Positions 6,694 through 16,326 of a DNA stretch of 38,915 nucleotides are shown in pieces. Location of the stretch: NCBI GenBank assembly GCA_023659775.1, contig JAGXOS010000002.1, positions 1 to 38,915 on the forward strand. The letters run 5' to 3'. A program made the position numbers and the translations under genes. The stretch's first letter is position 1. Each line of letters begins with the position of its first letter. The DNA is from Methanomicrobia archaeon LH_S14 (lineage in GTDB: Archaea > Halobacteriota > Syntropharchaeia > Alkanophagales > Methanospirareceae). A model generated the notes under the pieces. It made no database searches. It was not told the origin of the DNA and saw only the letters and a list, made by a program, of their open reading frames with translations.

Positions 6694-6981
6694 ATGGGAA
6701 ATAATAAGGTAAAGATACTGGAGAAGAAGGAGAAAGAGGTGAGGATAGAGGTGGAAGGTGAAGACCATACACTTTTAGCTCCACTGGCATCAAAGCTATT
6801 GGAGAATGAAAAGGTTGACATCGCAACCTATGGCATCAAACATACGCTGATGAGCAACCCGGTTTTGTATGTGAAGGTGAGGGAGGGGGATCCATTAGAG
6901 GTGGTGAAGTCGGCTGCTGCTTCACTGGCATCAGAATTTGAGGAATTCGAGACCTTGTATAAAAAAGCGGCAATAGTCTAG
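6694..6981 (+). CDS. rpoL: DNA-directed RNA polymerase subunit L (Rpo11)
   Basis: EGEDHTL motif, size, and conserved position after csl4. Confidence 0.92.
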   Translation: MGNNKVKILEKKEKEVRIEVEGEDHTLLAPLASKLLENEKVDIATYGIKHTLMSNPVLYVKVREGDPLEVVKSAAASLASEFEEFETLYKKAAIV

Positions 6982-7037
6982 CGGTAGGACATGGGCTTCC
7001 CAAGCCTATAACCCGGGTTCAAGCCCCGGTTGCCGCA
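6967..7037 (+). tRNA. tRNA-Gly, anticodon CCC (CCA not encoded)
   Basis: Acceptor GCGGCAA/TTGCCGC plus discriminator A; D arm GTC-TAGCGGTAG-GAC; anticodon arm TGGGC-TTCCCAA-GCCTA; T arm CCGGG-TTCAAGC-CCCGG. Confidence 0.93.
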
Positions 7038-7071
7038 TAAAAGTTTTAAAAAAAAGTTTTATCAAAGAAAT

Positions 7072-8163
7072 ATGGACCAGATAAAAAAATACGAATTCAG
7101 GAAGGTATTGGAAGAACTGAGGAAAAAGAGCGGTAGAGGTACAGAACTCGTTTCAGTTTACATTCCCCGGGATAAACAAATATCTGATGTTACTTCTCAT
7201 CTCAAGGAAGAATACGGGCAAGCAATGAACATAAAAAGCAAATCCACTCGTACTAACGTTCAAAGCTCTTTAGATTCCATTTTATCCAAGCTGAAGTATG
7301 TGGATATAGGAGAAAATGGCGTGGTTATATTCTGTGGTGCGGTGGAGAAGGGTGGAGACAAGACGGATATAGAAACTTTCATCGTGGAGCCGCCGGAGAA
7401 AATACCTTCTTACATCTATCATTGTGATTCCTCTTTCTTCCTCGAGCCGCTGGAAGAGATGGTGGAGGAGAAGGAAAAATACGGGTTGCTCGTGCTTGAC
7501 AGAAGAGAAGCAACGATAGGCATTCTAACGGGAAAGGTGGTGGAGACGACGAAGCACTTGACTTCCGCGGTTCCGGGAAAGATAAGAAAAGGGGGGCAGT
7601 CGGCACTGCGATTTCAAAGGTTGCGAGAGATTGCAATAGAAGATTTTTATAAGCGAATAGGGGAGCATGTAACACGAATTTTGCTGCAAATAGGAGACCT
7701 CAAGGGCATCTTGATAGGAGGACCAGGTCCAACGAAGGATGATTTTATAAAAGGGTCTTACTTGCATTACGAGCTGCAGAATAAAATTCTTGGCGCTTTT
7801 GATGTAGCCTATACGGATGAATCAGGTCTTTTTGAGCTCGTTGACAAGGCAGAGGATGCCCTGGAAGGGCTGGATTTGATGCGCGAGAAGAGGTTCATGA
7901 CGAGGTTCATGAAGTTATTGGCAAATGATGAGAGTATGGTTGCATACGGAGATGAAGAAGTAAGGAGGAAATTGGAAATTGGCGCTGTTGGCACGCTTTT
8001 GTTTTCCGAGGAGCTCAGCACTGAGTTCATGCACAATTTAGTAGAACTCGCTGAGGAGATAGGAGCAGATGTGGAATTAATATCAACGGATTTTGAGGAA
8101 GGCGTGCAATTAAAGCGTGCATTTGGTGGCGTTGCCGCTTTATTGCGGTACAGGGCAAAGTAA
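7072..8163 (+). CDS. prf1: Peptide chain release factor aRF1 (363 aa)
   Basis: GTELVSVYIP, NIKS, YHCD and GGQS motifs. ATG 7072 chosen because the 7030 start lies inside the tRNA. Confidence 0.95.
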   Translation: MDQIKKYEFRKVLEELRKKSGRGTELVSVYIPRDKQISDVTSHLKEEYGQAMNIKSKSTRTNVQSSLDSILSKLKYVDIGENGVVIFCGAVEKGGDKTDIETFIVEPPEKIPSYIYHCDSSFFLEPLEEMVEEKEKYGLLVLDRREATIGILTGKVVETTKHLTSAVPGKIRKGGQSALRFQRLREIAIEDFYKRIGEHVTRILLQIGDLKGILIGGPGPTKDDFIKGSYLHYELQNKILGAFDVAYTDESGLFELVDKAEDALEGLDLMREKRFMTRFMKLLANDESMVAYGDEEVRRKLEIGAVGTLLFSEELSTEFMHNLVELAEEIGADVELISTDFEEGVQLKRAFGGVAALLRYRAK

Positions 8164-9529: not shown

Positions 9530-10576
9530 TTAAAACTCCAACTCCCCCGCTATTTTCGTCCCCATATTTATCGTTACCTCTGCTATATCCTCGCAATACT
9601 TCGCTATTCTTCCCAAACTCTCCATGATAGAAAGAAGATGTATTTTTTCTGTAATACTCAGCTCTTCTGCCAAAACTCGCTCATTTATTTCATCTAATTT
9701 ATCTATCAGCGCATTTGCATCCCTTATCGCTTCATTCGCTCCTTTCATATCCGTATTCGATAAGGAAGCCAGAGTCCTGGTGAAAAGGTTTTCAGCACGA
9801 AAGCCGATTTCTTTTATGCCCCCCAAGCTTTGAACCCCTAAAGATACAGGGCTTTTCGGATTCATTAGCATGGAATTCTTCGCTATATTCTCTACATGGT
9901 CGCCTATCCTCTCCATGCTTTTCACTATTATCCTGTATCCCAGGCTATCGCGCTGCCTGCCCACGCCTATTTTCTTTGCAAGCTCGGGATCGCTCATCGC
10001 AGCCTTTAGCTGCCTTACGATGAGCAAATAAAATCGGTCTATCTCGTTATCGCGCTCTACAATGTCCTCCGCAAGGTTCGAGTCACCTTTTTCAAGTGCG
10101 GAAATCGCATCTCCCTGCATTGACAATATTATCTCTGACATGCTCCGTATCGCATCGCGTAGTGTAAAATCCTCGTATTTTAAAAAGCTCTGGAGCACTA
10201 TTTCCTTTGACGACTCTCCAACAACCTCCATGCCTATCAGCCTCTTCCTCACTTCCTCCTTTATCCTCTTCCTTTCTTCAGCCCCGAAACCGCTGGGCGA
10301 TAAAAGCTTTATGAGGTCATATCCAACGAGGTAATGAGCGATAAGATACCTGAAGTTGTCCTCAAAGCTTTCTTTCTCTGAGAGTTTGAGCTCAGCGGAT
10401 TTTGTCTGCTCTTTTTCCTTCTTCTCCGGTGTTATGACAAGGGAGTTATCACTACGTTGAATTAAAGAGAGTTCATCTCCTTGCTTTATCCCCGCTTCTC
10501 TTGCCCATTTTATAGGAAGCGATATGGTAAGTGTCGAACCACCTGTGAGCTGTATTTTTCTCTTCTCCTCTTTCAT
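9530..10576 (-). CDS. phoU: Phosphate uptake regulator PhoU family with N-terminal AbrB domain
   Basis: RKIQLTGGSTLTISLPIKWA (AbrB) followed by two PhoU repeats (DNEIDRFY, ERIGDH, RIAKYCEDIAE). Confidence 0.88.
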   Translation of the reverse strand: MKEEKRKIQLTGGSTLTISLPIKWAREAGIKQGDELSLIQRSDNSLVITPEKKEKEQTKSAELKLSEKESFEDNFRYLIAHYLVGYDLIKLLSPSGFGAEERKRIKEEVRKRLIGMEVVGESSKEIVLQSFLKYEDFTLRDAIRSMSEIILSMQGDAISALEKGDSNLAEDIVERDNEIDRFYLLIVRQLKAAMSDPELAKKIGVGRQRDSLGYRIIVKSMERIGDHVENIAKNSMLMNPKSPVSLGVQSLGGIKEIGFRAENLFTRTLASLSNTDMKGANEAIRDANALIDKLDEINERVLAEELSITEKIHLLSIMESLGRIAKYCEDIAEVTINMGTKIAGELEF

Positions 10577-14098: not shown

Positions 14099-15684
14099 TG
14101 AAGGAGCACGCAAAGGGGACAGAGGGTAAGATAAGAGGAGTAGAGCAGGAATATCCGGCAAGTGCAAAAGCGACCTCAAATCCTTCTTTGCTCGTCAACG
14201 CCGCGATTCAAGGTTTAAAAAGAAGAAAAATTTCAAGGGATGTGAAGTGGGACATAACTACCGAAATATCACAGGAAGCGAATGAATCGCGAATAGCGTC
14301 TTCGTACGGAGATAACGGCTGCCGGATTTATAACGATATGGGGCATCTTGAAATAGCAACACCTTCTTACAATAACCCTTTTGATGCCGTGGCATACGAT
14401 AAAGTATCAGAGATATATGCTTTTGTGGGCTCAAGGGAGGCGAGCCTGGCTTTAAAGAAAAGAGTGGTTATTCATAAGAACAATGTCGCGAATTTCTTCA
14501 GTCGCATTAGTGCTGGTGCTGACAGTGGCATACACATAGGAAAAGGGAAAAAAGTAAAAACCAATACATACGCCACGCATGGGAATATAATAACAAAAAG
14601 AAAAGCATGCAAGGATTGGAGTCGTGTAGAAAAAGCGCTAATACCCTGGGTTGTTACACGAATATTGTTCACCGGGTCCGGGGATGTTGTTTCCGGAGAT
14701 ACCTTTGGTAAAGAAGGAGTAAAGTTCGTTATCTCGCCAAGAGCGATGTTCGTTGTGCAGAAGTCTTCTCTTTCCACTACTGTGGGTAGAGGCATCCTGA
14801 ACACAAGAGACCAGCCTCATGCCGCACGTCAATACTGGCGACTACACGATATACATTATGAGGCGCTTCGTTCCGAATACGCAATTTTCTTGCGTGATAT
14901 CGCGCAAGCAATGGTAATTTGTGCATTTGAATTGGGGTTCCTGGATGATGCACCGGAGATAGACGACCCGGTGAGGGCATTCAAGAAAATATCATTGGAT
15001 ACGCAGGAATGCGAGTGGGAGATAAAGTTGAAGAACGGTGAGAGGACAGATGCAGTATCCATTTTACGGTTTTATCTCGAAGCAATAGAGAAGATGTACG
15101 AAGAGATGGGAGGAGAAGGGAAGTGGGATAAAATAGGGAGAAAAGGTTTAAAGGAAGTGATAGAGAAGTTGGAAGCTCGGCACCTCGAAAAATATGTGGA
15201 TGGGATAGACTGGGTGACGAAATTGGCATTGCTTGTGAATTACGAGCCGAAAAGTGCTTCTGAAGGAATAAGCATATGTAATCAATATGCATTGCTGGAT
15301 GAAAGTGTGATGTATTATCTCGAGGATGGAGAAGAAAGTATAAAAGGCAGTTGTCTTTTCAATCCGAAGGAGTCGCTGGCATTCGCAAAGAAAGAATTGC
15401 CGCAAGTTGATTGGTCTTCGTTATCAGATAGAGTAAAATATGCACTGAGTAATGCACCGGAGCAGACGAGGGAATTTTTCAAGGCTGAGCTGTTGAGAAG
15501 ATATGGATCGCATGTGAGGAGTGTTAGCTGGTCAACGATGGTGCTTAATGAGGCGAAAATAATGCTGGACGAGCCGTTTATGCTAAATAAGGCAGAAATA
15601 GGGGCGGAAATGATAGAGGGAAGAGAAATAGAGGAAGTTTTATCAGCAGCGAAAAGGTTATATCCTGATAAGGTGATCTTTTAG
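14098..15684 (+). CDS. PafA/Dop-family protein, closer to Dop (deamidase/depupylase)
   Basis: GVEQEY, Dop-loop-like KWDITTE, NGCRIYNDMGHLEIATP (cf. Dop NGARLYVDHAHPEY), HKNN, TTVGRGILNTRDQPHA, RLH, IDWVTKL, APEQTREFFK. Coupled to the upstream gene by a TAATG overlap. Confidence 0.85.
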   Translation: MKEHAKGTEGKIRGVEQEYPASAKATSNPSLLVNAAIQGLKRRKISRDVKWDITTEISQEANESRIASSYGDNGCRIYNDMGHLEIATPSYNNPFDAVAYDKVSEIYAFVGSREASLALKKRVVIHKNNVANFFSRISAGADSGIHIGKGKKVKTNTYATHGNIITKRKACKDWSRVEKALIPWVVTRILFTGSGDVVSGDTFGKEGVKFVISPRAMFVVQKSSLSTTVGRGILNTRDQPHAARQYWRLHDIHYEALRSEYAIFLRDIAQAMVICAFELGFLDDAPEIDDPVRAFKKISLDTQECEWEIKLKNGERTDAVSILRFYLEAIEKMYEEMGGEGKWDKIGRKGLKEVIEKLEARHLEKYVDGIDWVTKLALLVNYEPKSASEGISICNQYALLDESVMYYLEDGEESIKGSCLFNPKESLAFAKKELPQVDWSSLSDRVKYALSNAPEQTREFFKAELLRRYGSHVRSVSWSTMVLNEAKIMLDEPFMLNKAEIGAEMIEGREIEEVLSAAKRLYPDKVIF

Positions 15685-15744
15685 TAAAGGTTCTTGCGAA
15701 GCAAAAAAGTGTTAGGGGGTTGAGTTAAAGTGGGTGTGAATGTA

Positions 15745-15987
15745 ATGGGTTTTGAAGGAATGGAAGGGGAAGAAGAGGAAATAGAAGAGGAAGAGGAGTA
15801 TGTAAAAGAGGAAGAGAAGGAATACAGCGGTGCAGAGAAGGAGAAAGAGATGGCGAGCATAATGGAAAGGTTGAAGCAGCGTGAGAAGAAGGAGAAAGCC
15901 GCCGACCTCGTAAGTAAGTTGAGAGGGAAGAAGAAGGTAAATAAGAAGATAATGCCTTATGAGATATATGCGACTTCGGGGGAGTGA
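15745..15987 (+). CDS. Candidate Pup/UBact-like small protein modifier (80 aa, ends ...IYATSGE)
   Basis: Low-complexity, highly charged protein with C-terminal Gly-Glu, directly downstream of two PafA/Dop homologues. ATG 15745 follows GGTGTGA; GTG 15730 is an alternative start. Confidence 0.78.
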   Translation: MGFEGMEGEEEEIEEEEEYVKEEEKEYSGAEKEKEMASIMERLKQREKKEKAADLVSKLRGKKKVNKKIMPYEIYATSGE

Positions 15988-15989
15988 AT

Positions 15990-16326
15990 GCTCAAATACA
16001 ATCTGCTCCACCATATAACGATTAATGGTTGAATAACAATAGCAGATACAGCCATACTTATCAACTGTCCGATATAGGGTATAGAACCGGTAACAAAATA
16101 ATGAATTTTCTTCTTCCGTATTCTGTCATGTCTGACAGACTTGTTCTGCCTTTTCCCGCCGCCCCTTTCGCCATGCCAATCGCACCGGCAGTGAAAAACG
16201 CACTTATTAGCAACACCAAAATCACAGTGATGATGACAGCAGCTATAATCATATCTATGTTTTGATTTGAATGATCTTCCACGTTTCGAACCCTTTTCCT
16301 ATTACACCGCCAAGCTCTTCCACCAT
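15990..16326 (-). pseudogene. Collapsed archaeal multi-pass membrane protein gene
   Basis: Three pieces in different frames: MVEELGGVIGKGFETWK / LISAFFTAGAIGMAK...TSLSDMTEYGRRKF / IVIQPLIVIWWSRLYLS. Boundaries approximate. Confidence 0.55.

Follow-up and report, generated by a model that had tools for sequence, protein, structure and literature searches.

The window analyzed here is the whole 38,915-nt stretch at positions 1 to 38,915 of contig JAGXOS010000002.1 from Methanomicrobia archaeon LH_S14, in which the plus strand carries four consecutive genes in the same orientation: an AAA ATPase gene (P0079; 10703..12331, 542 aa), two genes of the Pup-ligase family, namely paralog A (P0080; 12338..14098, 586 aa) and paralog B (P0081; 14098..15684, 528 aa), and, 60 nt past paralog B, a small open reading frame (ORF; P0001; 15745..15987, 80 aa plus stop) whose product is a candidate Pup-like tag with the C-terminus Y-A-T-S-G-E. 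Pup, together with PafA, Dop, and Mpa/ARC, occurs in Actinobacteria and sporadically in other bacteria, and several Gram-negative phyla have Pup-type systems whose tag is UBact. The present window is archaeal, with genes for aRF1, SRP54, and HcyBio-CBS, and belongs to a 1.63-Mb assembly of 243 contigs that is 66% complete; the organism names attached to homologs indicate ANME-1 (Methanophagales, Methanospirareceae). An earlier note, made from the letters of this DNA, had proposed the small ORF as a Pup-type modifier distinct from both Pup and UBact. Our analyses tie the tag functionally to the PafA/Dop pair and to an Mpa-like unfoldase in ANME-1 archaea.

The tag P0001 contains 23 Glu and 14 Lys in its 80 residues, including the stretch LRGKKKVNKK, and its net charge runs from −13 in residues 1-27, through +1 in residues 28-54, to +5 in residues 55-80. 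It can be divided into (i) an acidic, disordered segment (residues 1-27), (ii) a helical segment (residues ∼30-68), and (iii) a conserved, Lys-rich tail (residues 54-80) that is predicted to bind the enzymes. An AlphaFold2 model of the tag, built from the alignment of its homologs, placed helices at residues 30-68 and 71-78, with a predicted local distance difference test (pLDDT) value below 50 at residues 1-22 and a predicted template modeling (pTM) score of 0.30, and it contains no globular fold, no strands, and no beta-grasp. The acidic start, the basic end, the 14 lysines, and the S-G-E terminus that had been described in the earlier note are borne out by translation and composition, and its suggestion of a helical middle holds in view of the modeled helices. 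Among the 232 stop-to-stop frames of at least 60 codons in the window, this is the only one that ends in G[EQ]. A GTG at position 15730 offers an alternative start, which would yield a product of 85 residues.

Conservation and genomic distribution of the candidate tag gene

A protein homology search returned 77 homologs of the tag, with lengths of 74-124 residues, and 30 of these make up the tag alignment. All of its 17 invariant columns fall inside the last 38 residues, and the tail K-I-M-P-Y-E-I-Y-A-T-[SA]-G-[EQ] is present in 30/30 rows, 29 of which end in Glu and one in Gln; the acidic N-terminal part varies in both length and sequence. The earlier note would have counted loss of the terminal G[EQ] in orthologs against its reading; the motif is likewise kept in 32/32 ANME-type loci, and the reading withstands this check. 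Across 32 distinct orthologous DNA sequences, the proportions of synonymous (pS) and nonsynonymous (pN) differences in the last 27 codons are 0.67 and 0.034, respectively (pN/pS of 0.05), and pN/pS for residues 36-53 is 0.24.

The coding strand at the tag locus is purine-rich, and because such a strand yields many spurious ORFs, we weighed the alternative that P0001 is a chance open frame within a purine-rich intergenic stretch. This alternative is refuted by the pN/pS value of 0.05, by the 77 homologs, and by the sense frame, which is open in 32/32 orthologs, whereas of the antisense frames one is open in 14, another in 2, and the third in 18 of the 32; its probability is next to nil. As the antisense frames are not kept open, the two overlapping minus-strand ORFs at 15712-16014 and 15681-15860 are by-products of the purine-rich coding strand. 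The tag ORF is confirmed as a genuine coding gene under strong purifying selection.

Searches for more distant relatives of the tag returned little. When 1.84 billion representatives were searched with a profile of the ANME-1 tags, only four matches came back, all of the ANME type and one of them truncated; Pup, UBact, and the mini-tags described below were not reached. In the ESM Atlas the tag found no usable match, and a profile of the tag alignment matched PDB entries at chance level only (E ≥0.1).

The distribution of the tag follows that of the ligases. Among 41 related genomes, matches to the tag profile and to Pup_ligase (PF03136) occur in the same 27, with a single tag copy in each, and neither was found in the remaining 14. 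The 27 comprise all 25 genomes of the host family, including the host itself, and both genomes of a second family in the order; in 23 of them, the tag lies just beyond paralog B, on the same contig and strand. Further, Pup_ligase was present in 56 of 401 genomes sampled across the phylum, all of them within two families of the host order (53/54 in one family and 2/2 in the other, plus the host genome), and in 0/344 elsewhere in the phylum. In the NCBI annotation, the archaeal enzymes carry the label "PafA2 family protein," and the tags are labeled "hypothetical protein" or are uncalled.

Some ANME-1 genomes, as well as the Alkanophaga-type family, have a tag gene that stands away from the enzymes. 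Two such unlinked tags, G018:C34:14520-14786 (locus L111) and G026:C1:84914-85141 (locus L110), lie among unrelated metabolic genes, with PRPP synthetase, ketol-acid reductoisomerase, and a TrkA-C/PhoU gene beside the former and adenine deaminase beside the latter. We considered whether they adjoin proteasome or ATPase genes, and rejected this, as their neighbors are metabolic.

Enzymes and ATPase encoded with the candidate tag

Both paralogs score above the curated cut-off of PF03136 (25 bits), with E values of 2.3e-59 (202 bits) for paralog A and 1.7e-63 (215.6 bits) for paralog B. Paralog B is Dop-like, by its scores against the NCBIfam Dop and PafA models (185 versus 137 bits) as well as by its PDB matches (4e-36 for Dop versus 3e-14 for PafA). 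Paralog A is ambiguous, with 161 bits for PafA versus 159 bits for Dop in NCBIfam, and E values of 6e-27 for Dop versus 2e-20 for PafA in the PDB. Neither paralog reaches the equivalog cut-off of either Dop (TIGR03688, 492) or PafA (TIGR03686, 551). The motif G-x-E-x-E near the N-terminus is kept in both. PafA and Dop alike require a catalytic Asp, which paralog B holds in its motif R-I-Y-N-D-M-G-H-L-E; the Asp in Y-[ND]-D-x-x-H-[LF]-E is kept in 73/73 B sequences. Paralog A contains H-E-S-Y in the host and H-E-[SN]-Y in 69/69 A sequences, and it carries a C-terminal extension of ∼100 residues.

A model of the tag in complex with paralog B was built from alignments of 29 rows (tag) and 43 rows (paralog B), in three runs and with three controls. 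The complex reached an interaction prediction score from aligned errors (ipSAE) of 0.82 (0.81-0.83 over the three runs), as compared with 0.00 for the best of the three controls, a score that indicates likeness and not binding; the ipSAE mark is reached by 116/157 solved complexes and by 2/215 mismatched pairs. The runs share at least 65% of their contacts, with a partner pLDDT of 56-57. In the model, the tag touches paralog B through residues 54-56, 58-65, and 67-80, which is its conserved part and roughly what the mini-tags retain. The touched residues of paralog B include 18, 20, 80-83, 161, 227-228, and 252, among which are the invariant columns of the E18 region, D80, H161, and T227, and the catalytic Asp region is contacted. 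The tag is predicted to fit the Dop-like enzyme through this conserved segment.

The ATPase P0079 was identified as Mpa-like from its Pfam AAA match, its AlphaFold2 model, and Foldseek comparisons. Its Walker A, Walker B, and pore loop (M-W-L-G) are intact. The AlphaFold2 model (16-row alignment; mean pLDDT of 79, pTM of 0.58), which is of the monomer, consists of a helix at residues 10-44, two beta-rich domains at residues 50-117 and 121-191, and then the AAA module. As modeled, this corresponds to the Mpa/ARC architecture of an N-terminal helix, two oligonucleotide/oligosaccharide-binding (OB)-type beta domains, and an AAA module. Among the Foldseek matches listed for this model, ranks 1-11 and 21 were all Mpa (E values of 8e-25 to 2e-22, over ∼440-510 columns), and the listed Rpt/PAN chains had E values of 3e-20 or weaker, mostly over ∼350 columns. 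The NCBIfam models for PAN, CdvC, and pup_AAA all scored under their cut-offs on P0079. We also considered whether the operon ATPase replaces PAN, and rejected this because PAN is found separately, above cut-off, in 36/41 related genomes; PAN was not found in the host genome, an absence that is uninformative at 66% completeness.

Except for a few distant archaeal proteins, the ATPase has full-length relatives in ANME-1/Alkanophaga only. An ATPase ortholog lies within 10 kb of the enzymes in 39/48 loci of the ANME-1 order versus 0/32 other loci, and in most of the nine ANME-order loci that lack it, the contig ends close upstream of the enzyme genes. When the N-terminal 200 residues of the ATPase were used as a single-protein query, no match was obtained in five genomes with short tags, and 3/3 ANME-1/Alkanophaga control genomes were matched. 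Proteasome genes are absent from the operon, and the single proteasome-family match in the incomplete host genome is on another contig.

Upstream of the ATPase gene, the window contains a divergent gene for a fusion of MazE/AbrB-type and PhoU domains (9530-10576, minus strand); its occurrence here and that of the related TrkA-C/PhoU gene beside the unlinked G018 tag may be a coincidence. The aRF1 gene (7030-8163), if read from its listed TTG start, shares its first bases with a tRNA-Gly (CCC) gene at 6967-7037, and the true aRF1 start is therefore probably further downstream.

Mini-tags outside the ANME-1 order

Paralog B has relatives outside ANME-1 with 37-49% identity, one of which is named Bathyarchaeia. 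A scan of species genomes with an alignment of B relatives returned 80 loci, 48 in the ANME-1 order and 32 outside it, from Bathyarchaeia, Methanomethylicota, other Thermoproteota, ANME-1/Alkanophaga, and three contigs that look truly bacterial (L046, Thermodesulfobacteriota; L053, a deltaproteobacterial metagenome-assembled genome; and L049, Tectomicrobia). An A-like gene precedes the B-like gene wherever the contig allows, and the orthologous A-B pairs of the 32 outside loci show 31-40% identity. In 28 of these 32 loci, there is a small ORF ending in E-[IVL]-x-A-P-[PS]-G-[EQ], which we refer to as a mini-tag. The earlier note had suggested collecting small ORFs downstream of homologous enzymes, and the terminal G[EQ] is indeed shared by them. 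Most mini-tag ORFs (26/28) follow B, comprise 27-41 codons, and start −3 to +12 nt from the B stop, a proximity that suggests translational coupling. The remaining two (L046:8360-8503 and L053:8358-8501) are situated ∼3.2 kb upstream of the B stop, just before A, and end in A-P-P-G-Q; both lie inside a longer open frame, and TctC and TctA transporter genes come after the A-B pair.

Four loci have no mini-tag. Two of them end within 30 nt past B; at the other two, L043 and L049, the contig is long enough, yet such an ORF is absent. The B frame of L043 (9947-11932) reads on into an unrelated tail for a total of 661 residues, perhaps because of a frameshift or an assembly error; L049 (1737-3326) holds the most divergent A-B pair. 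Three further loci, L050, L088, and L098, are labeled Patescibacteria, Nitrosotalea, and Desulfobacteria, and their enzymes and tags fall inside the Bathyarchaeia or ANME-1 clades, so that they are probably mis-binned archaeal contigs.

The mini-tags end in Glu in 17 cases and in Gln in 11 (n = 28), with near-identical pairs, L030 and L031 among them, differing at that residue only, and the tags of ANME-type loci end in Glu in 31 cases and in Gln in one (n = 32). This exchange corresponds to the G[EQ] signature of Pup as described in the available text of Iyer, Burroughs and Aravind 2008 (PMC2588565), where Pup conjugation is placed in Actinobacteria and four other bacterial lineages, archaea not being among them. 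The claim in the earlier note that the modifier is ligation-ready, and that the Dop-like enzyme would act mainly as a deconjugase, is plausible for ANME-1 in view of the near-uniform Glu ending; there are, however, Gln-ended copies (1/32 and, elsewhere, 11/28), by which deamidation is still implied within the family. The earlier note also sees in the many lysines a possible means of chain formation.

An alignment of 22 mini-tags shows no variation at the His, Ala, Pro, and Gly of K-K-E-H-x-E-V-V-A-P-P-G, and the ANME-1 tail K-K-I-M-P-Y-E-I-Y-A-T-S-G-E lines up with this motif from the C-terminus. The mini-tags and the ANME-1 tag have in common orthologous enzymes, a Lys-rich stretch, the ending E-[IVL]-x-A-[PT]-[PS]-G-[EQ], and a place after B. 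However, the ANME-1 tag exceeds the others two- to threefold in length, carries an acidic N-terminal part and a long helix, and has Y-A-T-S where the mini-tags have [VI]-A-P-P, and the linked Mpa-like ATPase is a feature of its loci and not of theirs. As the orthologous enzyme pairs are followed by G[EQ] ORFs of 27-41 codons, the ANME-1 protein appears to be the elongated version within a wider family. The long tag and the linked ATPase appear together, but as a single event in evolution, so that their joint appearance suggests, without statistical weight, that the extension serves the ATPase.

A FastTree phylogeny of 35 A and 35 B sequences separated A from B with a support of 100, and within each, ANME-1 plus Alkanophaga was separated from the rest. 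The congruence of the A and B clades indicates that the pair is older than its spread. Because long-branch warnings were given for the bacterial rows, the tree is not used to name a donor or a direction of transfer.

The brevity of the mini-tags also raises the alternative that the small ORF encodes a precursor or scaffold peptide, to whose C-terminal Glu the ligases add a small amine or amino acid on the way to a metabolite or cofactor. In most lineages the products are 27-41 residues long and are encoded directly beside two enzymes of the ligase superfamily, as in a precursor-peptide cluster, and unfoldase or proteasome genes are unlinked outside ANME-1. Yet the annotated loci show no conserved gene for a protease, a transporter, or another tailoring enzyme next to the pair, the enzymes fall within Pfam Pup_ligase (E values of 1e-48 to 1e-69), and the ANME-1 cluster has gained an Mpa-like unfoldase while its tag gained an unfoldase-type extension, which fits protein tagging. 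We therefore regard a precursor role as unlikely.

Most likely, the small protein is a tag of the Pup type that belongs to a new sequence family, and it is the long member of a broader family of archaeal mini-tags. A more encompassing reading, which we consider evenly balanced, is that these proteins form a third family of Pup-type tags, widespread in Archaea (ANME-1/Alkanophaga, Bathyarchaeia, Methanomethylicota, and related Thermoproteota) and sporadic in bacteria, with a core of ∼25 residues that ends in E-[IVL]-x-A-[PT]-[PS]-G-[EQ] and is served by an old, complementary PafA/Dop pair. On this reading, the ANME-1 tag would be the unfoldase-adapted long form, and the Mpa-like unfoldase would have been coupled to the system in ANME-1 when the tag gained its helical, acidic extension.

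A probable Pup-like tag in ANME-1 archaea

Starting from what was computed directly, namely the reality of the gene, its selection, its co-occurrence and synteny with the ligases, its conserved G[EQ] end, its modeled fit to the Dop-like enzyme, and the Mpa-like architecture of the ATPase, we estimate at roughly 65% the probability that the product of the ORF serves ANME-1 archaea as a Pup-like protein tag joined to other proteins through its terminal Glu; the covalent conjugation, the division of labor between the paralogs, the recognition by the ATPase, and the fate of tagged proteins are what we infer. In such a system, the conserved C-terminal 27 residues would dock in the substrate groove of the Pup-ligase-family enzymes, and the terminal Glu would enter the active site. 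One paralog would activate the Glu side-chain carboxylate with ATP and join the Glu covalently to target lysines, and the Dop-like paralog B would remove the tag, a Gln-ended tag being first deamidated to Glu by the same enzyme. The helical middle and the acidic, disordered N-terminus would be additions limited to the ANME-1/Alkanophaga order, an extension that most likely lets the Mpa-like ATPase bind and thread the tag. Tagged proteins would thereby be unfolded and might then be handed to the archaeal 20S proteasome.

The proposed system resembles that of Pup in pairing a small, non-globular G[EQ] tag with two Pup_ligase paralogs, one of them Dop-like with a catalytic Asp, and with an ATPase whose best structural matches are Mpa and in which an N-terminal helix precedes two beta domains and an AAA module. 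Pup itself is laid out in three parts, the first disordered, the second helical, and the last binding the enzyme, and the layout of the ANME-1 tag can be likened to this. Pup is likewise described as disordered, without a globular fold, in the available text of PMC3511204. The differences are that the host is archaeal; that the tag ends in Y-A-T-S-G-E rather than in G-G-[EQ] and is Lys-rich (14/80); that A is without the Asp and B without the Glu of H-E-N-Y; that the ATPase ends in M-H-[YF]; and that the proteasome genes lie outside the operon. UBact is similar in that it is a short tag ending in [ST]-G-[EQ], encoded beside PafA/Dop homologs. Its tail typically has an Arg before [ST]-G, unlike the ANME-1 tag.

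Several observations weigh against the assignment to Pup-type tagging. The first concerns the tag sequence, as neither the Pup models (PF05639 and NCBIfam Pup) nor the UBact model NF033388 matched P0001 at E values up to 10, five mini-tags were matched by neither Pup nor UBact, and NF033388 gave no match in a six-frame search of the host genome. In the corresponding six-frame search with PF05639, the sole match (E of 0.4) was on another contig, and at the tag locus neither of the two models matched at E values up to 1; NF033388 also found nothing above cut-off in five other genomes with orthologous enzyme pairs. The G-G-[EQ] end of Pup is replaced by [SA]-G-[EQ] in 30/30 aligned homologs, so that the less strict signature G[EQ] is what they retain. 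Between the ANME-1 tag and the mini-tags, in turn, hhalign recovered just the 21 C-terminal columns expected from the motif, but the match is weak and without significance (probability of 1.5%, E of 0.034), so that their homology rests on gene context and a short motif; their common descent is likely from the context, and is not demonstrated by sequence.

The same profile results bear on whether the tag is simply a very divergent member of Pup or UBact, in which case the mechanism would be unchanged and only its classification would differ. Homology of the enzymes to PafA and Dop, a terminal G[EQ], disorder, and operon position, which are common to the tag and Pup, would all be expected of such a member, and short, disordered tags may diverge past profile detection. 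On the other hand, neither PF05639, nor the other Pup models, nor NF033388 matched, the search of 1.84 billion representatives reached ANME-type proteins only, and the conserved tail motif is unlike GG[EQ], which makes this classification improbable. The proposal in the earlier note of a Pup-type modifier distinct from Pup and UBact thus gains support from the profile non-matches, together with the conserved G[EQ] end, the co-occurrence with the ligases, and the modeled fit to the active site of paralog B, and it has withstood all the computations made here. Its further suggestion of a separate family stands with respect to Pup and UBact, from which profile searches separate the tag, and needs amendment in that the tag appears to be the long form of the wider mini-tag family.

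The second adverse point lies in the active sites of the enzymes, neither of which is canonical as judged from its motifs. Paralog B is without the Glu of H-E-N-Y (H-G-N here; Gly, Ser, or His across B sequences), and in paralog A the catalytic Asp is replaced, with [IV]-C-T-G-G in 42/42 ANME-type A sequences (I-C-T-G-G in the host). Among the 27 A sequences of non-ANME type, 15 keep Y-[GIA]-D, and the Bathyarchaeia type (C-Y-[IV]-H-[SG]-N) lacks the Asp. These complementary losses could reflect a division of labor or an obligate A-B pair. Moreover, as solved Dop-Pup and PafA-Pup complexes exist, the ipSAE of the tag with paralog B may partly be the model's memory of them, although the tag itself resembles Pup in no way that sequence searches detect.

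With one canonical active-site residue absent from each paralog, full ligase chemistry is not assured, and the small protein could instead be a non-covalent partner of the enzymes or of the ATPase that is never ligated, such as an adaptor, a regulator, or a pseudo-substrate occupying the Pup groove. The complex model gives docking only, and the tag is highly charged and helical, as many adaptors are. A partner of this kind, however, has no obvious need for an invariant G[EQ] end that swaps freely between Glu and Gln; the 27-41-residue versions comprise little beyond the tail; and the tail is modeled at the catalytic Asp region. We consequently assign a low probability to a purely non-covalent role and retain conjugation through the terminal Glu as the preferred reading.

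The ATPase and the gene order furnish the remaining adverse points. P0079 scored 154.9 bits against the Mpa equivalog TIGR03689, the cut-off of which is 504.75, and its C-terminus is M-H-[YF], with the aromatic residue last, in 12/12 ANME-1/Alkanophaga-type rows (G-M-H-Y in the host). The proteasome-docking motif given in the available text of PMC6466877 is GxYx, with a penultimate Tyr, so that docking to the 20S proteasome is unsupported by motif in the ANME-1 ATPase and, judging from these C-termini, may differ or be absent. Three distant ATPase homologs end in F-Y-V, S-Y-K, or D-Y-A, which are HbYX-like (hydrophobic residue, Tyr, any residue), and one row, P0286, has no such tail. Further, a sister family within the class, which has neither Pup-ligase genes nor the tag, encodes a distant relative of the ATPase N-domain (G027:C187:1429-2025; 27% identity, E of 2e-8), so that the unfoldase family may predate its association with the tag system. 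Finally, the tag is on another contig in 4/27 genomes (G002, G018, G025, and G026), and it is not beside the enzymes in 8/43 ANME-type loci that have room for it.

Among the modifiers already described in archaea, those of the SAMP and Urm1 type adopt the beta-grasp fold, end in Gly-Gly, and undergo E1-like activation. The ANME-1 tag differs from SAMP, Urm1, ThiS, and MoaD in that it is modeled as helical and disordered, ends in Gly-Glu, and adjoins ligases of the glutamine-synthetase fold. SAMP and Urm1-type proteins are presented as small archaeal modifiers tied to proteasomal degradation in the available portions of PMC2948915 and PMC4895103. In the available text of a 2019 review and a 2025 minireview, archaea are named for their proteasomes only (PMC6466877 and PMC12288473), and in that of a 2024 review, Pup and UBact are the prokaryotic tags and archaea are given beta-grasp modifiers only (PMC11354881). 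Our literature searches, whose coverage did not extend to the 2017 UBact paper and its supplements, returned no report of an archaeal Pup-type system; some of the hits dealt with a phosphatase that shares the name PafA. Pupylation is treated as bacterial in the accessible parts of the literature covered, relative to which an archaeal counterpart with its own tag family would be new.

If the proposed reading is true, archaea have pupylation-type tagging besides SAMP and ubiquitin-type tagging. This would bring to archaea a second, unrelated chemistry of protein tagging and would reopen the origin of Pup-type tagging. The mini-tags would provide a minimal tag of ∼30 residues for studying substrate recognition by PafA and Dop, and the enzyme pair, each member of which is without a different canonical residue, poses a testable puzzle on how ligation and removal are split. 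For ANME-1, the uncultured anaerobic methane oxidizers, the system would point to a regulated protein-turnover pathway, one that can be searched for in existing metaproteomes.

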